Part shown: in pieces, positions 15,546 through 41,414 of the stretch | Numbering within the stretch: position 1 is the first letter of the stretch | Layout of the letters: every line of letters starts with the position of its first letter | Assembly: GCA_964544335.1 (NCBI GenBank) | Contig: CAZJAJ010000001.1 | Coordinates: 29,199 to 93,198, forward strand | Source of the DNA: an uncultured Methanosarcinales archaeon | GTDB lineage: Archaea > Nanobdellota > Nanobdellia > Woesearchaeales > JABIAG01 | Reading direction: 5' to 3' | Length of the DNA: 64,000 nt | Translations under genes and position numbers: made by a program | The notes under the pieces: model-generated | What the model was told of the DNA's origin: nothing | Database searches by the model: none | The model's input: only the letters and a program-made list of their open reading frames with translations

Positions 15546-18059
15546 TTATACGGTTGATACTTGGATGTTGGTAAAGTCTGTACCAGTTACTACAACTTCT
15601 TCACCACTTAGGGTGTAGTCATCATAGTTAGCTAGAACACGTGCAGCTCTTCTGGTATCCATTGCGCCGTACCCGTTAACGAGTAGAGCAACATTTTCTC
15701 CATATTCCTTAAGGGAAACAACTGCTGTGTTTTCTTCTGGTGCACCTTCTAGACAGTTACTTGCTGTAACGCCAAGGAACTCTGCAGCTTTAGCGTTAGC
15801 ACAAGGACCACCTACAACAATGGTGTTTTGACTTTCGAAACTTCCAACTTCACTTGCAAGCTTAGCTGTACCAACTTCGATCTTCTGAACGTTTACACTT
15901 TCAGCTGATTGAGCAGTTACAACGTTAGCACCTACAGGACTAATGAATACATTAGCATATAGTTCGTCACCAGGGAAGGTGAGAACTAGACTTCTCTTGT
16001 CTTCATCATCGTGTACAACTTTTGTACCGTAGTCGGAGTAGTATAACTGATCATCGTCGTTAGAGTCTGAAAAGTCTACTGAACCGTAGGTTGCATCACT
16101 AAATACAGGTGTTCGAACATTCAGTTCTTCATCATCACTGATATCTCTAGTAATGTTAAAGCTGATAGTTCCTCGGGAATCATCTGCACCACTACCGTCG
16201 GTATCACCGTCGCTTTCATCGAAAACAAATTTGAAGGTTGAGTTTCCGTCAATGATGGTGTTGTTGTTAGCACCATTATTTGTACCGTTTCTCTCAATAC
16301 TTAATAGACCTTCATACATGGTTTCCATGTCGTCTCCAAGATTGATGATGTCATCACCAGAATCACTGTGTGTAAAGTTCAGGGACTCGTGACCAATGGT
16401 TAAGTATACATTTGCACCACCAGCAGGTAGGTCTAATGCATCTACAGCACCATCAGGTGTAAAGTCTTCAGTCTTTTCTCCACCGTATGTGATATCTTTC
16501 AAGGTTGTTTCGTTGTCGTTCACATCAATGTCAGAGATTTCAATAACGTGTACTTCATCTCCTTCATTTACAAGGAATCGAGCGCCTTCACAATCTTGTA
16601 CATCACTACTTGCAGGAGCACAACTGTCACCTTCAAAGTAGTATTGTTCATCATCATCTGAATCTGTACCGAAGTAGATGTTATCGTTTGTTGCATCACA
16701 GCTTCCGTCACAGAAGAATGGTAGAACAATTTCTTTACCATCTGAGTTCATGAAGGTTACTGTAAAGTCATCTCCACTTACATCAGCAGTAACTACGTCT
16801 TCTTTAGCAACAAGGCTAGCAAAGGTAATTTCCCAATTTCCAAGAACAGGGTCTGCCCATGTGTCGCCAGGACCTAAGTAGATTTCATCTTCAGGTTCGT
16901 ACCAGATACTGAATTCTTCAAGTGCACCAGCACTACCAATGAATTCAACTTCTGAACCGTCAACTTCTTTACCGTTGATTTCTACTTCGTCACCTTCTTT
17001 TAAGGTAATTTCAGTTGCACCAAGGTTAACTTCACAAACATCGGTATCTTGAGCTTCACTGTGTACAGAGATAGCTTCAGTTACACCAACTTCAACACCA
17101 TTGATAGTTTCAGAACTACCTGTGTCAAGCCATTCTAGTGAACCATCAATTAAGATACCACACTTGTCTTCGTTTTCGTTTACATCAACGAGTTCAACTT
17201 CGTGTTCTTCACCACCGATAATTCGGGTAATTGGGTTATCTTGTTCAAGCCATACGGTTGTGTCACCAGCTTGTAGTTTTAGTTCACTAATTACACTGCT
17301 TGATAATTTTACATTAACAATAGTGTAGGTATTACCTTGGATATCGATCTTTGCAGTTTCGAAATCGTCTTCAGCAGTACTATCACTGGTTGAGTCGTAG
17401 TCAACTTCGTTGTCAAACTCAAGTGTATAATTGTACATCATAGCACTGTTGTCAGTAAAGAGATATAGACCACCATCTGGAGCGTCACTATCATCCTGAT
17501 CTAGCTGAAGTGTACCTGCAGCAGAACCCCAAGTAATTTCTTGGTCGTACTGTTCATCGTTGTCATTTGAACCTTCACTTTCGTCGAATACACCATCACC
17601 GAGAACGGTTGGTAATTCTGAGTTGTCAACATCGCCTTCGATACTTGCGAATGCTTCACCAATATTTAGGTCGTTACCTGAACTTCCTAGGCTTGAACCA
17701 TCGGAAATAGTTACAACAGCACCTGAACCGCTTGAAGCAGTTGTGGAACTGAATTGTAGACCAGTTGCAATATCAATAGCACCAAGAGTATCGGAACTAA
17801 TAGCGTTGTCACCTAATACGATTACACCGTTAAATACACCATCTTGAATTACAAGAGGACTTGGGTAATCACTCAAATCTGCAGCCACTGCACCCATCAC
17901 AGTTGCACCAAGCATTGATGCACCAAGACCGATTGCAGCAACCTTTTTGATTGCCTTTCTTACTTTCATTGTTTTAAACACCTCCGTGTTATGCTTCATG
18001 AATTTTTCATGAAACAAGTTGCGTCCACCTCTGAACGCACATATGTACCAACAGCACAT
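15546..18059 (-). CDS. S-layer protein (archaeal S_layer_N/S_layer_C type), highly acidic
   Basis: Signal peptide MKVRKAIKKVAAIGLGASMLGATVMGAVAA; LSDYPSPLV..SSDTLGAIDIATGL N-domain; C-terminal IVVGGPCANAKAAEFLGV; D/E-rich. The likely start is the internal MKVRK at about 17969. Confidence 0.7.
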   Translation of the reverse strand: MCCWYICAFRGGRNLFHEKFMKHNTEVFKTMKVRKAIKKVAAIGLGASMLGATVMGAVAADLSDYPSPLVIQDGVFNGVIVLGDNAISSDTLGAIDIATGLQFSSTTASSGSGAVVTISDGSSLGSSGNDLNIGEAFASIEGDVDNSELPTVLGDGVFDESEGSNDNDEQYDQEITWGSAAGTLQLDQDDSDAPDGGLYLFTDNSAMMYNYTLEFDNEVDYDSTSDSTAEDDFETAKIDIQGNTYTIVNVKLSSSVISELKLQAGDTTVWLEQDNPITRIIGGEEHEVELVDVNENEDKCGILIDGSLEWLDTGSSETINGVEVGVTEAISVHSEAQDTDVCEVNLGATEITLKEGDEVEINGKEVDGSEVEFIGSAGALEEFSIWYEPEDEIYLGPGDTWADPVLGNWEITFASLVAKEDVVTADVSGDDFTVTFMNSDGKEIVLPFFCDGSCDATNDNIYFGTDSDDDEQYYFEGDSCAPASSDVQDCEGARFLVNEGDEVHVIEISDIDVNDNETTLKDITYGGEKTEDFTPDGAVDALDLPAGGANVYLTIGHESLNFTHSDSGDDIINLGDDMETMYEGLLSIERNGTNNGANNNTIIDGNSTFKFVFDESDGDTDGSGADDSRGTISFNITRDISDDEELNVRTPVFSDATYGSVDFSDSNDDDQLYYSDYGTKVVHDDEDKRSLVLTFPGDELYANVFISPVGANVVTAQSAESVNVQKIEVGTAKLASEVGSFESQNTIVVGGPCANAKAAEFLGVTASNCLEGAPEENTAVVSLKEYGENVALLVNGYGAMDTRRAARVLANYDDYTLSGEEVVVTGTDFTNIQVSTV

Positions 18060-18359
18060 TTAAAGACTGCATCGGTTTGAACCGAGTACAATTCTTCTGT
18101 GCTGTTAGCACAATAGTAGAACAATAACTCCAAGAGTGCTTTATAAACTTTTCGCAAACAATAGGGTCTAAAATAGGGCACAATGCAGGACAAAAGGTAT
18201 ATCTGCAAAATACCCAAAATATAGACGTTCATCACTATTGGATAGTACACTCAAAAGACCCACTTCTTAACAGAATCCTTTATAAACCACAACAATTAAG
18301 TTTATAAAGAGGGAGCAGTATCTGCACGATATTGATCAAATACGATCAAATACCTTTGC

Positions 18360-18443
18360 GCGGGGTTGCCGGAGTGGTCAAACGGGATAGGTTTAGGCCC
18401 TATTAGCTTAGTGCTTACGCAGGTTCGAATCCTGTGCCTCGCA
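18360..18443 (+). tRNA. tRNA-Leu (anticodon UAG), class II with long variable arm
   Basis: Hand-folded cloverleaf: acceptor GCGGGGT/GCCTCGC, 3-bp D stem, anticodon stem ATAGG/CCTAT with loop TTTAGGC, variable arm AGC-TTAGT-GCT, T loop TTCGAAT, discriminator A; no encoded CCA. Confidence 0.85.
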
Positions 18444-18454
18444 TTCTTTATTTT

Positions 18455-18620
18455 TATGAGCTTGAGCGTAGCGAAACTCATCTTGGTGTGCAACTGACAA
18501 TGCAGTGCTTCTGGATCCTGTGCCTCGCATATTTCTTTTTTATTCGTACTACCGAGCATTTAGCGAAGGTGTACAAGGTGTGAAGTGACTTAGCACTTCT
18601 GCCTAGCATTCTTTATCTTT
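18455..18620 (+). repeat. two degenerate tandem copies (~85 bp each) of the tRNA-Leu 3' region
   Basis: 16-nt exact repeat atcctgtgcctcgcat at 18429-18444 and 18515-18530; 17/17 with one mismatch tgcct(c/a)gcattctttat at 18434-18450 and 18599-18615; shared internal tagcgaa...ggtgtg blocks. Confidence 0.6.
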
Positions 18621-18624
18621 AACA

Positions 18625-19329
18625 TCATATGCTCTTTCTCAATAATAATCTAAGAAGTCTTCTCATCTCATGCACAATATACCATGCCACATCACAAAAA
18701 AAATGCATACTACTCATTGGACGTACTTTATTTTTTACTCTGCCTTGCTTTATCGACGAGATGACTGCACCAATAGCAAGATCTGCATCAATAACACAAT
18801 ACTGCCTACCAAAGTTACGCAAGATATGCAAATCTGTTGTTGCAACCAAGGGTTTTCTGAGCACATGTGATGATGCAACCGCATGTTTGTTTGGATTATA
18901 CCACCGCGTGTGAAGTGAACAATACTCAATAGCATCAAAGAGATCCTCATGCTCGATAAATACATCCCGTAAACAAGTAGAACCAGGGTAGAATACATGT
19001 GGTGCAATAACTAAATGATGATCTTGTTTTAGCTTTCTTAAATCTGAAAATGAATTGATGTTTCTTAATTCCTCATCGAAAAAATTATACAGAAGCACAT
19101 GTTTTCCTTCAATGGTCTTTTCAATACCTGGAATGAGTAAAATACCCCTCTTTTTTGCATAAGATTGTAGGGTCAAAGGGTAAAACAATTGATCATGAAA
19201 CGTAAAAGAAAGAACCCGATATCCCCTTTTTGCTGCACGATCAATAACATCTTTTGCACGATACGATACAAGATCAACGACATCTTCTTTTGCATGCACA
19301 TGCAAATCAGCTTTCAATGCTCTTGACAT
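18625..19329 (-). CDS. PHP domain metal-dependent phosphoesterase
   Basis: N-terminal DLHVHAKED... and further His/Asp positions typical of the PHP family. Confidence 0.7.
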   Translation of the reverse strand: MSRALKADLHVHAKEDVVDLVSYRAKDVIDRAAKRGYRVLSFTFHDQLFYPLTLQSYAKKRGILLIPGIEKTIEGKHVLLYNFFDEELRNINSFSDLRKLKQDHHLVIAPHVFYPGSTCLRDVFIEHEDLFDAIEYCSLHTRWYNPNKHAVASSHVLRKPLVATTDLHILRNFGRQYCVIDADLAIGAVISSIKQGRVKNKVRPMSSMHFFCDVAWYIVHEMRRLLRLLLRKSI

Positions 19330-37105: not shown

Positions 37106-37324
37106 GAAAGATTTATAATGGCTAATTATAGCTACCACTACGTTAAAACGGATAATTTCACCTTTTTAACCAAAAAGCGATTTGGCGTCGTAATGACGCT
37201 TTCCTCGAATCCGTCATAAGCAGATGAATTTTCTGAAAAAAACAGAAAAAAGCGAGCGGAAACTTCAGATGACAGCGGAAAAGTCATTCTCAGGTTATGC
37301 TGTCAAAAGAAAGTGAATTAAGAA
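37106..37324. repeat. R1 copy a, 219-bp non-coding repeat module
   Basis: 100% identical to 39747-39965; begins with the GAAAGATTTATA core (TATA-like); contains hairpins gcgtc-gtaat-gacgc and gacagc...gctgtc with T-runs on the minus strand. Confidence 0.9.
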
Positions 37325-37689
37325 TTTGATGTGAAAGGGGCAATAAATCCTACTAAAATTCCGATAATGAGCATAAAAACTCCAAACCCTGAACTGATAA
37401 ATATGCCTCCGATAAACGCCAGACCTACAGCAATTAATCCAAGCCAACCTCCTAAAAAATAAGAACCAGCAAGAGATCCTAGAGTTGCAATAATTGGAAT
37501 GAGCCAAAAAGCAAAAGAGTAGATTGGGTCTGGAGATAATTCTTGAATTATAGATGCAAATGCTTTGATAATTTCTGATTCTGGATTAACTCCAACATGA
37601 ATCCATAAACCGCTTAGAAAACCAAATCCTAAAACGAATTCTTGAACAAATGATTTTCCTATATCTTCAGCACCCATTTTATACTCCAA
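37318..37689 (-). CDS. membrane protein, hypothetical (cassette 1)
   Basis: Four TM helices; its 3' end runs 7 bp into R1. Confidence 0.35.
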   Translation of the reverse strand: MEYKMGAEDIGKSFVQEFVLGFGFLSGLWIHVGVNPESEIIKAFASIIQELSPDPIYSFAFWLIPIIATLGSLAGSYFLGGWLGLIAVGLAFIGGIFISSGFGVFMLIIGILVGFIAPFTSNS

Positions 37690-38371
37690 AAAATGATTTA
37701 ATTTTATCCCAAATTGAAGATTTCATCTTTTCGTCTGGATTATAAGAACCATCAAAATATCTTTTCAACAAACCAATTGTTCTATTGTATGCTTTTCTAT
37801 TTTTTGCTAATCTCCTATCAAACATTTTTCTCTGTAAGAAATCATATTCTCTTAGAATTTTACCGCCTTTTAGAAGTGTTGCTCTTACAACAATATGTTT
37901 AAAGTTAGGGTGTGGTTTATTTTTAATGTAGTTTTTAACATGACGAAACTTATCTGGGCTTAATTTCATAGCTACAGTGGAATGAAAGTAATATTTTCTT
38001 TCATAGTCAATTGGTTGAAGTGTACAATAAGGTTGTAGTTTTTTTGACAGGTGCCATCTGAATTCATCTAAATTAGAACTTGGATGTATATCAACATATA
38101 CAACTCTATTTTTCTCAAAAGTGTCGAATCCTTTGACGGTGAATTTCATTAAAGATTGCTTTGAACATATAGAATAAAAATCACTGATTAATTTTCTCTC
38201 ATTATTTGTTTGAAACGGTGCAACCAGAGTAATATGTGGGACTGGTCTTTTCTTCTTAGCATTACCTATTCTGCATCTTTTATCAACTTCCCATATCAGC
38301 TTTTTTAATTCAGATTTTGCTTTTCCTTGAAATCTGAATTCAATTAGATAATGAACCATTTTTCCACGCAT
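37679..38371 (-). CDS. 2H phosphoesterase superfamily protein (LigT/2'-5' RNA ligase-like cyclic phosphodiesterase)
   Basis: Two H-x-T/S-x motifs (PHITLVAPF and YFHSTVAMK) with appropriate spacing. Confidence 0.7.
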   Translation of the reverse strand: MRGKMVHYLIEFRFQGKAKSELKKLIWEVDKRCRIGNAKKKRPVPHITLVAPFQTNNERKLISDFYSICSKQSLMKFTVKGFDTFEKNRVVYVDIHPSSNLDEFRWHLSKKLQPYCTLQPIDYERKYYFHSTVAMKLSPDKFRHVKNYIKNKPHPNFKHIVVRATLLKGGKILREYDFLQRKMFDRRLAKNRKAYNRTIGLLKRYFDGSYNPDEKMKSSIWDKIKSFFGV

Positions 38372-38711
38372 AATATTTTTTTATTATATCTTTAGTGCCT
38401 GTTGAAAGCTTAATTGATTTTTCAGGTAAGTAATAATCTATTCGTTTAACTTCGTGTTTTGGTTTTGGAGTGCCTTTAGCTTTTATCAAAACAACTGTGT
38501 GTTCATGGCTGTGACTTTCATGTCTAAATATTATTTTAGCTTCATTTGCCATTAATCCAGTTTCTTCTTCAAGTTCACGAATTGCTGCTCTAAATCTACT
38601 TTCTCCTTTATCTGCTCCACCACCTGGCAAAAGATAAGTTCCACCCATTGAAGTTAAGAGAATGCCTTTGGATGTTTCAACAATAGCAGTTCCTCTTCTT
38701 CTTTTTGACAT
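38340..38711 (-). CDS. NUDIX hydrolase
   Basis: Nudix box GGGADKGESRFRAAIRELEEETGL. Confidence 0.8.
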   Translation of the reverse strand: MSKRRRGTAIVETSKGILLTSMGGTYLLPGGGADKGESRFRAAIRELEEETGLMANEAKIIFRHESHSHEHTVVLIKAKGTPKPKHEVKRIDYYLPEKSIKLSTGTKDIIKKYYAWKNGSLSN

Positions 38712-38713
38712 TT

Positions 38714-39319
38714 CTAATCCTCAAATAATTTTTTTGAGTCGTATTTTTCTTGGTCTCCTTGATTTATCTGATTTCCAAGACTAAGATATTCTAACTCTTT
38801 GAATCTATGAACCCATGCGACAATATTTCTTGGAAAGATATTTACTCTTTCATTGTATTTTTGAACAACTCTGTTGTATGCTAATCTAAAGTTTCTTAAT
38901 TTTGATTCCATTCTTGAGATGCTTCCACGTCCCATAATACTTTTATGCAACGCATCTGCTTTTAATTTGGGATATCTCTCAAAAACTGCTTGGATTTTAA
39001 GGAATGCATTATCTACTTCTTTGAATGTTTGAGCTTTTTCATTTAATGAAGCGTCTTTTGTCCATCGGCTTCTCGCCTCAATAACATCTTTCAATGCTTT
39101 GTATTCATGAATGTCATATTTTTTGATAACTTGTGCAAGTGCAGGCAACATATCTATTCTTTGTTGCATTAAAACATCAATATCTGCAAATTTCCTCTTC
39201 GCTCTATTTATCCAATATTGAAATTTGTTATAAATTACTATCCATCCTTTTATTAGCCAAATACTTGCTAATATCGCAATGATTCCAATTGCCCATTTGA
39301 TTATTGTTGTTTGATCCAT
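38714..39319 (-). CDS. lemA: LemA family protein
   Basis: N-terminal TM then ...RYPKLKADALHKSIMG...AYNRVVQKYNERVNIFPRNIVA matches LemA. Confidence 0.75.
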   Translation of the reverse strand: MDQTTIIKWAIGIIAILASIWLIKGWIVIYNKFQYWINRAKRKFADIDVLMQQRIDMLPALAQVIKKYDIHEYKALKDVIEARSRWTKDASLNEKAQTFKEVDNAFLKIQAVFERYPKLKADALHKSIMGRGSISRMESKLRNFRLAYNRVVQKYNERVNIFPRNIVAWVHRFKELEYLSLGNQINQGDQEKYDSKKLFED

Positions 39320-39330
39320 GTTAAGTCCTC

Positions 39331-39531
39331 CTAAACAGAGAAATAATCTTTCTCATTGATGTTTTTTGGTTTGACTTCTGCCTTGAAGTAGGTAATCATC
39401 TGTTTAATGGCTTCTTGTTTAGTTTTCAAATTATTGACTAATTTGTATATCTCAACAATTCTATCCTCTTCCGATGATAAATCAATTTGAATTTTAACCA
39501 TTATATATCGCCACGATATATGGAAATACAT
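39331..39531 (-). CDS. small hypothetical protein (66 aa)
   Basis: ORF; first gene of cassette 1. Confidence 0.3.
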   Translation of the reverse strand: MYFHISWRYIMVKIQIDLSSEEDRIVEIYKLVNNLKTKQEAIKQMITYFKAEVKPKNINEKDYFSV

Positions 39532-39556
39532 TGAAATATATAAATCTTTCTGATAA

Positions 39557-39758
39557 AAAAAGAAAAAAAGCGATCGTTACTTCGCTCCTTTTTGCCTACC
39601 ACACCCAAAGTATTCGCCTAAGGATGCTAGGTCTCGTTTCTGCTTAAAACGTCTAAAAGTCCAAAATTCCTTAATTTCAGACTTTTTACTCTTTGGTGGT
39701 TTAGTGACGCTTTTTTGAAAATCCGCCATAACTACTACACAATGACGAAAGATTTATA
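39557..39758. repeat. R2 copy a, ~202-bp non-coding repeat module
   Basis: ~96% identical to 41212-41414 (six substitutions, one 1-nt indel); ends in the GAAAGATTTATA core shared with the R1 start. Confidence 0.85.
39569..39594. terminator. hairpin plus T-run (agcga-tcgttactt-tcgct-cc-ttttt), bidirectional terminator-like element inside R2
   Basis: Perfect 5-bp stem; poly-T on the plus strand and poly-A upstream (T-run on the minus strand). Confidence 0.35.
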
Positions 39759-39965
39759 ATGGCTAATTATAGCTACCACTACGTTAAAACGGATAATTTC
39801 ACCTTTTTAACCAAAAAGCGATTTGGCGTCGTAATGACGCTTTCCTCGAATCCGTCATAAGCAGATGAATTTTCTGAAAAAAACAGAAAAAAGCGAGCGG
39901 AAACTTCAGATGACAGCGGAAAAGTCATTCTCAGGTTATGCTGTCAAAAGAAAGTGAATTAAGAA
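39747..39965. repeat. R1 copy b, 219-bp repeat module
   Basis: Identical to 37106-37324. Confidence 0.9.
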
Positions 39966-40004
39966 AATCTATTAATCGTTGAGAATTCAATTAATAATTT
40001 ACCT

Positions 40005-41174
40005 TCAATAAAAGAATCTTCCGTTAGGAGTAGCATTTGGAGTTGGCTCCTTGATTTTGTGAGCATATGCTTTTACAACATCTTCAAATTCTTTAAAATC
40101 AGTAGTTCTAAAATGTTGTAATGCTTCTTCTAAATCTCCTGTAATTACATAAGGTTCTCCTGTGAAAATAGAATTTTTACAATCTTGTTTTCTTCCCATA
40201 GATGTAAAGATAAAAGGAGCTTCTTCAAAGCCTGGAGCAGATGAAGTCCTATATTCGGCTACATTAACAGAACCACTTCCTCTGAACATTGGTTTTTGCA
40301 TATCAAATTTACTCATGTGCCCTAAAAAATTATTTGAAAAGTATAACATTGGCTTTGTAGATGTTGTGTATGTTCCTTGCATATACAATGAACCATCATC
40401 ATCATCTTTAGCAACACCTAATAGATAAACTTCCTCTTTTGATCCAACATAAACAAAATCTCCATGTTCTAAATCTTTAGTTGCTCTTGTCAACCAATCA
40501 TGTGCAACCCACATATTAAAACTACCATATGAAGGTTTTCTTGAATCACCGTTGCTTTTAAATCTATTAATCAATCCAGTGATCATGTTTCCTTTAGTAA
40601 CCCATTTAGGCATTTCTAAATCAGTACCTCTATTCTCAAGAAATGGAACTACATTTCTTTCGAAATATCCAGGTCTAGTAATCTCTTTTAATTTATCAAC
40701 CAATAAACTTTCATCAGCAATAACAGTTACACCATCAACTGTTTTTTCAACACGACCATCTCCAAATTTGTTTGCTAGAGTTAAATATAGGTCGGTGTGA
40801 CTTTCAGCAGAAGGCAGATACAAACCAAATTCCTGATCAAAATCAAAGTCAAGTCTGTGAGTTCCAAGAATTTCTATTCTTGCTTTAGCAGTAATTCTTT
40901 TTGAGGGATCTTTATGAGTATATGGATCGCCTTCTTGTGGCATCAATATATTCCCTATACACATTATGCTTGTATGTCTATTGGCTCGAACTCTCAATGG
41001 ATCGCTAGAACCAATTTCAGCACCTTCATATTTTAACAGAGAAACAGAATCTCCAAACTGAATCAATATATTTTGTCCTTTTTCTAGAGGTTCAACTACT
41101 TGTTTTACTGGAAGTAGCATATTATCTAAAGATTCAACTTCATTACTATTTGTAGTAGCTAATTGTTCCCCCAT
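40005..41174 (-). CDS. hypothetical protein (389 aa), sole gene of cassette 2
   Basis: Long ORF, no recognised motif. Confidence 0.4.
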   Translation of the reverse strand: MGEQLATTNSNEVESLDNMLLPVKQVVEPLEKGQNILIQFGDSVSLLKYEGAEIGSSDPLRVRANRHTSIMCIGNILMPQEGDPYTHKDPSKRITAKARIEILGTHRLDFDFDQEFGLYLPSAESHTDLYLTLANKFGDGRVEKTVDGVTVIADESLLVDKLKEITRPGYFERNVVPFLENRGTDLEMPKWVTKGNMITGLINRFKSNGDSRKPSYGSFNMWVAHDWLTRATKDLEHGDFVYVGSKEEVYLLGVAKDDDDGSLYMQGTYTTSTKPMLYFSNNFLGHMSKFDMQKPMFRGSGSVNVAEYRTSSAPGFEEAPFIFTSMGRKQDCKNSIFTGEPYVITGDLEEALQHFRTTDFKEFEDVVKAYAHKIKEPTPNATPNGRFFY

Positions 41175-41211
41175 AACTACTTGAAAATAGTATTTATATA
41201 TAAATTTAATT

Positions 41212-41414
41212 AAAAAGAAAAAAAGCGATCGTTACTTCGCTCCTTTTTGCCTGCAACACCCAAAGTATTCGCCTAAGGATGCTTAGGTCTCGTTTCTGCT
41301 TACAACGTCTAAAAGTCCAAAATTCCTTGATTTCAGACTTTTTACTCTTTGGTGGTTTAGTGACGCTTTTTTGAAAATCCGTCATAACTACTACACAATG
41401 ACGAAACATTTATA
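41212..41414. repeat. R2 copy b, ~203-bp repeat module
   Basis: See R2 copy a; ends with the core variant GAAACATTTATA. Confidence 0.85.

Follow-up and report, generated by a model that had tools for sequence, protein, structure and literature searches.

The window analysed here is a stretch of 64,000 nucleotides from contig CAZJAJ010000001.1 of the archaeal assembly GCA_964544335.1. Its closest named protein homologues belong to Candidatus Woesearchaeota, and the archaeon is Woesearchaeota-like (DPANN). The sole tRNA gene that ARAGORN finds in the window is tRNA-Leu(UAG) (18360 to 18443, plus strand), which is intact, 84 nt long and without an encoded CCA; it scores 47 bits with the Rfam tRNA model RF00005, against a cut-off of 29. 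Directly behind it lie two short units on the same strand, U1 (86 bp, 18444 to 18529) and U2 (79 bp, 18530 to 18608), each ending in a copy of the 3' end of this tRNA. The tRNA anchors this small array, and its distal limit is a convergent gene for a PHP-family phosphoesterase (18625 to 19329, minus strand), whose stop codon lies 16 nt past the last tRNA-like copy. On the other side, divergent from the tRNA, is a gene for an S-layer protein of 807 aa (15546 to 17969, minus strand). An initial annotation, made from the sequence alone, had described two ~85-bp units after an intact 84-nt tRNA, each ending in a tRNA 3' copy plus a T-rich tail, and this description holds.

A repeat search recovered three in-register 29-nt copies, starting at 18429, 18515 (86% identity) and 18594 (76%), with spacings of 86 and 79 bp. 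A T-rich tail follows each of the three cores. The 16-mer ATCCTGTGCCTCGCAT occurs exactly twice on the plus strand, at 18429 to 18444 and 18515 to 18530, as first reported. The first occurrence is the core inside the tRNA, from the T-loop through the discriminator base and 1 nt beyond; the second is exact at 16/16 positions, closes U1 and runs into the T-rich tail TATTTCTTTTTTAT. When up to three mismatches to ATCCTGTGCCTCGCAT were allowed, 0.26 matches were expected per shuffled window, and two were reached in 1 of 100 shuffles. The third copy, identified by repeat search and alignment (18598 to 18622 with its tail, plus strand), is decayed: it has lost 3 nt of the T-stem strand and carries a C>A change (TCTGCCTAGCA vs TCCTGTGCCTCGCA). 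Of the 13 positions of its tail, TTCTTTATCTTTAA, 12 match the tail of the tRNA itself. A second repeat noted at the outset, TGCCTCGCATTCTTTAT (18435 to 18451), does return at 18600 to 18616 with one mismatch. The units had been called two degenerate copies of the tRNA 3' end. The first copy is exact over its 16 nt and the second is decayed; in each unit, the part that derives from the tRNA locus is limited to the final 11-16 nt together with the T-rich tail.

In the window, the block of identity begins in the T-loop (ATCC...), reaches the discriminator base and continues into the tail. Identity to the tRNA begins within the T-loop in the best-kept copies, from ATCC in U1 and from CGAAT in L030, a contig from a relative. 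Williams is reported to have distinguished sublocation classes of tRNA-gene integration in 2002, and the T-loop is said to be where tyrosine integrases of one tRNA-targeting class cross over.

The remaining ~55-65 nt of each window unit are DNA unrelated to the tRNA, and neither unit holds an open reading frame (ORF). Local alignment against shuffled sequences found no significant similarity between the unit interiors and any part of the tRNA. This bears on a further suggestion of the initial annotation, that the units are tRNA pseudogenes, which would make them decayed tandem copies of the whole gene. In a MAFFT alignment, U1 can be spread over the entire tRNA, and a small number of short stretches then match (AAAC and AGTGCT, for example), but the interiors match tRNA positions 1-44 or 45-72 no better than shuffles do (z from -2.0 to +0.8). 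Neither ARAGORN nor the Rfam tRNA model (E up to 10) calls a pseudo-tRNA in the units, and relatives hold protein genes between their copies. The unit interiors are not tRNA-derived and the units are therefore not pseudo-tRNAs; we regard this explanation as very improbable and effectively refuted. Annotating short tRNA 3' fragments in such genomes as pseudogenes would thus be wrong; they mark a variable locus that is useful for strain typing.

Using the PHP and S-layer proteins as anchors, we obtained syntenic loci from eight related lineages, grouped in clusters A to E. All of them are metagenomic contigs, and their S-layer proteins are 54-59% identical to that of the window. The L003 species is represented by 13 near-identical contigs, and one locus (L040) stops before the tRNA and is not part of the comparison. 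The relatives share a conserved frame of S8e, LSM, a variable segment, tRNA-Leu(UAG), the S-layer gene, S_layer_C and Gins51. Within this frame, the lineages carry between zero and four further same-strand copies of the last 11-18 nt of their own tRNA. One extra copy is present in the L003 species (cluster C; a 38-nt exact repeat spaced 98 bp, which continues 26 nt past the tRNA into the trailer), in L035/L036 (cluster B; spaced 89 bp) and in L038 (cluster E; spaced 92 bp), and two in the window. In cluster A, L031 has three exact and one decayed extra copies and L032/L033 three near-exact and one decayed, with gene cassettes in both. No extra copy exists in L029 (cluster A), an empty site, or in L037 (cluster D), whose tRNA is identical to the window's and which has the same PHP neighbor. 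The copies mirror the acceptor strand of their own species' tRNA: CCTCGCA in the window, CTCCGCA in L003 and L038, CGCCGCA in L035, and CCCCGCA in L031 and L032. Gene-less units occur in three downstream contexts, namely the PHP gene, a polyprenyl synthase gene and a 117-aa ORF. Beyond these loci, a metagenome scan with the tRNA pattern returned only the L003 species again and one unrelated archaeon without repeats, and a search of genome contigs with the PHP protein returned one distant locus, without the tRNA.

The third of these contexts belongs to L038, where the tRNA-Leu(UAG) and its unit (L038:1-131, plus strand) are inverted relative to the S-layer gene, with the 117-aa ORF (function unassigned) between. 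A rearrangement breakpoint therefore falls at this same locus.

The initial annotation had proposed looking in related genomes for an element between the repeats; in cluster A, L031 and L032 carry gene cassettes between cores. The inter-core segments are single modules, all co-oriented with the tRNA. From the tRNA outward, the L031 array begins with a 44-aa ORF (208 bp), continues with a 624-bp segment that holds HicB-HicA and a 40-aa ORF and then with a 58-bp unit devoid of genes, and ends in RHH-ParE; in that of L032, two copies of a gene-less 145-bp unit come first, then a Zn-ribbon ORF of 91 aa and lastly RHH-ParE. The RHH-ParE cassettes of these two species are 88% identical over 736 nt and are distal-most in both arrays, and the tRNA-proximal cassettes differ. 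Decayed cores are likewise the distal ones. The last copy in L031, AATCTGCCCCGCA, shows the same 3-nt loss as the core of U2, and the decayed core of L032, GCCAACGCCCCGCG, sits between the Zn-ribbon and ParE modules. With shared and decayed parts distal and lineage-specific and exact parts proximal, the arrays have the polarity predicted by serial tRNA-proximal insertion.

Copy number also appears to vary within a species. The 145-bp unit occurs twice in L032:8869-9158 and L033:8721-9010 and once in L030:2311-2455 and L034:196-340; its flanks are 100% identical among these assemblies, and two single-nucleotide polymorphisms are reassorted among the units. This points to continuing gain and loss through recombination between cores. 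Folding also predicts a long, imperfect hairpin in this unit, with the tRNA-like core as its 3' arm (z = -3.9).

An exact tandem doubling of the 145-bp unit, as seen in L032/L033, would also be expected if the arrays arose by purely local duplication, through slippage or unequal crossing-over of the tRNA 3' end and its trailer, without a mobile element or recombinase. The 38-nt exact repeat of L003, with its 26 nt of trailer, fits such a process, as does the resemblance of the tail after the window's third copy to that of the tRNA itself. However, local duplication cannot create interiors that are not tRNA-derived, nor differing gene cargo between the cores of relatives, and the origin of the first repeat pair would still have to be accounted for. 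In the window, U1 and U2 are only ~61% identical over 70 nt, so they are not a recent duplication; for the same reason, Tandem Repeats Finder does not call them. We consider local duplication on its own improbable.

We propose, with moderate confidence, that the 3' end of tRNA-Leu(UAG) functions throughout this clade as an attachment core at which site-specific insertions occur one after another. The core would consist of the last 11-18 nt of the tRNA gene, from the T-loop or the 3' strand of the T-stem to the discriminator base. Each insertion would adjoin the tRNA, rebuild its 3' end and bring a new T-rich trailer serving as an archaeal terminator, and the previous 3' end would be displaced downstream. 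The youngest unit would then be the tRNA-proximal one and the oldest the farthest. On this model, U1 with its exact core would be younger than U2 with its decayed core, and the window would hold a minimal form of the array. Its units may be integrase-less miniature cassettes, or else the joined arms left by internal deletion of larger elements, and recombination between the repeated cores could alter their number. We infer that a recombinase encoded elsewhere, acting in trans, catalyses insertion, and that insertion is always tRNA-proximal.

The initial annotation had read the repeats as the scar of integrase-mediated insertion and excision. This reading is supported in part: direct repeats around variable DNA, HicAB and RHH-ParE modules among that DNA, empty sites, decay with distance from the tRNA and, in one species, an apparent difference in copy number between assemblies are jointly characteristic of repeated site-specific insertion at the tRNA. 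No integrase or recombinase was found in the window's 31 ORFs of at least 230 aa (Pfam, with unannotated ones also compared with PHROGs) or in the variable regions and arrays of the relatives, and searches of IMG/VR, the plasmids of PLSDB and the phages of GenBank yielded no donor with an attP. The exact 16-mer has nine matches in IMG/VR, none in a tRNA-like context, and with blastn neither the plasmids nor the phages matched the tRNA 3' half and the units. A 22-nt degenerate pattern from the T-arm to the tRNA end had one match, in a huge-phage tRNA array, which we rejected as unrelated.

These negative results count against serial insertion, and so do several properties of the units. Those of the window lack cargo and are too small to be elements by themselves; more generally, units of 58-145 bp are too small as conventional double-stranded circular substrates. 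The one-versus-two difference in the 145-bp unit could partly reflect collapse in short-read assembly. In four lineages, the cores are perfect while the interiors of collinear units have drifted to ~62% identity. An old passive scar should decay, so an ongoing process or selection must maintain these cores. Taken together, the missing integrase, the tiny units and the perfect cores strain a 'dead scar' reading and suggest that the cores are still in use or under selection. A hairpin inside the units, described below, is moreover maintained by different complementary stems, which would not be expected of inert scars.

Only five gene-less units of 79-98 bp, from four lineages, are available for comparison. 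U1 and U2 probably belong to one family of ~80-100-bp units that also occurs in three other lineages. From end to end, U1 is collinear with its counterparts in L003 (63% over 92 nt, pairwise E = 2e-5), L035 (61.5% over 104 nt) and L038 (61.8% over 102 nt), identities that take in the shared tails and cores. Similarity restricted to the interiors is weak; it is significant for L003 vs L035 (z = 4.2) and marginal for U1 vs U2 and U1 vs L003.

Within the window, U1 consists of a T-rich tail, a hairpin (hairpin 1), a less structured stretch and the exact core, and U2 of a T-rich tail, hairpin 1, a second hairpin (hairpin 2) and the decayed core. Folding and a motif scan place hairpin 1 at 18456 to 18481 in U1 (plus strand; ATGAG(C)TT-GA-GC-GTA-GC-GA-AACTCAT) and at 18546 to 18574 in U2 (plus strand; GTAC(T)ACC-GA-GC-ATTTA-GC-GA-A-GGTGTAC; folding z = -2.56). 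Hairpin 2 of U2 (18577 to 18603, plus strand; GGTG-T-GAAGTG ACTTAG CACTTC-TGCC; z = -2.44) overlaps the start of the decayed core with its 3' foot. By eye, hairpin 2 could be derived from the T-arm or variable arm of the tRNA, an idea that failed a shuffle test.

Hairpin 1 has the same layout in U1, U2 and the units of L003 and L038, with an outer stem, GA, GC, a loop of 3-6 nt, GC, GA(A) and the closing outer stem. The GAGC...GCGAA centre is conserved, and the outer stems (ATGAG(C)TT/AACTCAT, GTAC(T)ACC/GGTGTAC, GATC/GATC and GATT/AATC) differ in sequence yet remain complementary. The motif had already been defined when L038 was examined, so the L038 hairpin counts as an independent confirmation. 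The motif GAGC-N3-7-GC[GA]A has 13 background matches in the two strands of the window (128 kb). A flanking stem of at least 4 bp accompanies 1 of 64 background matches in all the DNA scanned, versus 3 of the 4 unit hairpins. By inspection, hairpin 1 is not a C/D-box, H/ACA, K-turn or bulge-helix-bulge structure, as it has no RUGAUGA/CUGA pair, 3-nt bulge or ACA box.

Such a hairpin raises the alternative that the units are functional structured elements kept by selection, either as a small RNA or as a fold signal in single-stranded DNA. In its RNA form, transcription would proceed by read-through from the tRNA or from a start of its own, and the product would contain hairpins 1 and 2, carry a 3' tail identical to the acceptor strand and end at the T-tract. 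The changed but still complementary stems of hairpin 1 and their enrichment over background fit this alternative, as do the presence of units after the tRNA in three downstream contexts and the perfect cores beside diverged interiors. Several stems, moreover, depend on G-U pairs on the tRNA-sense strand. However, RNAalifold found no structure shared by whole units, and although U2 folds better than shuffles (z = -2.06), U1, L035 and L038 do not (z = +1.55, -0.09 and -0.74, respectively); the L035 unit lacks hairpin 1, and L037 and L029 have no units. In this region, only the tRNA itself exceeds threshold in Rfam 15, and matches at E up to 10 are merely noise-level small nucleolar RNA hits on the opposite strand. 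Each unit is preceded by T5-T8 tracts, at which the RNA polymerase of archaea should stop, and the sequence shows no convincing promoter. With only five units, covariation statistics are weak. We therefore hold it rather unlikely that the units are structured elements in this sense. The initial annotation had also offered a small RNA family, and had named compensatory changes that preserve a structure in relatives as a sign of function that would refute the scar reading; this is realized in part, as homologous units of relatives keep hairpin 1 through different complementary stems. For hairpin 1, a role as a recombination signal and one as a small RNA are both conceivable; should it prove to be RNA, a tRNA gene would have a new small RNA linked with it.

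We regard the locus as a probable tRNA-anchored insertion hotspot, a variant of known tRNA-linked insertion. Displaced tRNA 3' fragments mark the ends of genomic islands of tyrosine integrases, as outlined for the 'Islander' logic (PMC4383910). As in such islands, an intact tRNA is accompanied by same-strand 3' copies whose identity runs from the T-loop or T-stem through the 3' end, with variable DNA between copies and empty sites in some relatives (L037 and L029). Unlike in such islands, no integrase is encoded beside the tRNA or in the arrays. The inserts (58 bp to ~1.2 kb) also fall short of the several kilobases usual there, with units one to two orders of magnitude smaller, and those of the window are wholly gene-free, whereas relatives carry HicAB, RHH-ParE and small ORFs.

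Tandem accretion of att-flanked elements that lack an integrase is known from bacteria, where the elements are kilobases long and tied to a known integrase family. Such cis-mobilizable elements are treated in a review (PMC5704250), and tandem islands at ssrA are described for Dehalococcoides (PMC3146451). The present arrays resemble them in having serial elements at one site, repeated cores in between and no genes for recombination or transfer. They differ in that the units measure tens to hundreds of base pairs and are found in a DPANN archaeon. Mobilization by a recombinase from a neighboring or incoming element is hinted at here only indirectly, by the one-versus-two-copy difference between assemblies.

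Casposons, which are Cas1-dependent transposons, offer another archaeal precedent and another possible origin of the repeats, as target-site duplications. In Methanosarcina, they use tRNA-Leu 3' ends, produce 14-bp duplications starting with CGCA and form tandem arrays and solo remnants (PMC4779613). The repeated use of an archaeal tRNA-Leu 3' end, the tandem insertions, the short remnants and the CGCA at the junction have counterparts here, and every core ends in CGCA. However, the repeats reach 8-13 nt upstream of CGCA and are 11-38 nt long, which misfits a 14-bp duplication that starts there. The unit ends, as read from the sequence, have no terminal inverted repeats, and Pfam searches found no Cas1 or PolB in the window or the relatives' loci. 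We disfavor a casposon origin and give it next to no credence.

Integron cassette arrays and integrase-less clusters of attC sites, in which toxin-antitoxin cassettes abound, have also been reported from Archaea, Nanoarchaeota among them (PMC9668308). The arrays described here are similar in several respects: the cassettes are small, co-oriented and single-module, toxin-antitoxin systems are prominent, some cassettes lack genes and newcomers are anchor-proximal. As with these attC clusters, no integrase is linked, and some cassette ends form an imperfect hairpin (the L032 unit). Nevertheless, the locus is not an integron, because its boundaries are tRNA 3' ends and there is no IntI or attI. 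The RYYYAAC and GTTRRRY boxes of attC sites are missing: all boundaries have ...CCTGTGCC(N)CGCA and continue with GTTTTAC, GCGAAG, TTTTTC, CTTGAC or TAATAA, none of which fits GTTRRRY. The anchor is a tRNA gene rather than an attI next to intI, and the gene across the tRNA encodes the S-layer protein, with no IntI found.

A bolder form of the insertion model, which we put forward tentatively as possible, treats the window units and the gene cassettes of relatives as one tRNA-anchored, integron-like cassette system in DPANN archaea. Single-module cassettes ending in the 3' end of tRNA-Leu(UAG) would be inserted serially beside the tRNA by a recombinase from elsewhere in the genome or from a visiting element. 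The GAGC...GCGAA hairpin and the hairpins at cassette ends would serve as folded signals for recognition. Instead of dead scars, the ~80-100-bp units would be 'empty' cassettes, non-autonomous yet active, which would explain perfect cores with drifting interiors. DPANN genomes are very small, and gene gain and loss there are poorly understood. If the model is true, these archaea would possess a compact gene-capture platform without a resident integrase, intermediate between tRNA-linked islands and integrons.

A different, conserved non-coding element lies between the tRNA-Leu(UAG) and the PHP gene in L003 (10715-10805, minus strand) and L037 (125-210, minus strand), and is absent from the window. 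It is Y-shaped and ~78 nt long, and the two copies share the exact 21-mer GAGCTTTCCTAAAGAAAGCGT. Of its 31 predicted pairs, 10 are changed on both sides, and the tRNA-sense strand folds at z = -5.5 and -3.0. It has no Rfam match and is a candidate new small RNA, as judged from these predicted folds. The relation of the window units to a conserved element of the relatives, termed 'X', is not significant.

Elsewhere in the window, the initial annotation had linked the tRNA locus to a cassette array at 37-41 kb. This link has no support: the region contains unrelated repeats of 200-220 nt, with no integrase and no similarity to the tRNA-Leu core. Positions 37106-37324 and 39747-39965 are direct repeats (219 nt, 100% identity), as are 39557-39758 and 41212-41414 (~203 nt, 97%). 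Together, the repeats at 37106-41414 bracket genes for a LigT-like 2'-5' RNA ligase, NUDIX, LemA and two unannotated ORFs (355-389 aa). The arrangement has the look of a segmental duplication or island in its own right.

Other neighbors in the window are a second S_layer_C protein and Gins51. The G+C content of the window is ~38%, and one Logan contig matches it at 100% over 3,025 bp. Immediately 5' of the tRNA, two TATA-like boxes form an inverted pair, CTTTATAAAC (18278-18287) and GTTTATAAAG (18300-18309), followed by a perfect tandem of GATCAAATAC (two copies, 18334-18353). A TATA-like box upstream of the tRNA is kept in all relatives, whereas the 10-mer tandem is not. In the interval from the start codon of the S-layer gene to the promoter of the tRNA (~17970-18300), several short blocks are kept, by eye, in every relative (CACCTCCGTGTT, CATATTTAAAGA, CAATTCTTCT, TTTATAAACTTTTCGCAAA and TTCATCACT), although the proteins are only about 55% identical. 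These blocks are presumably the promoter and long 5' leader of a highly expressed S-layer gene.

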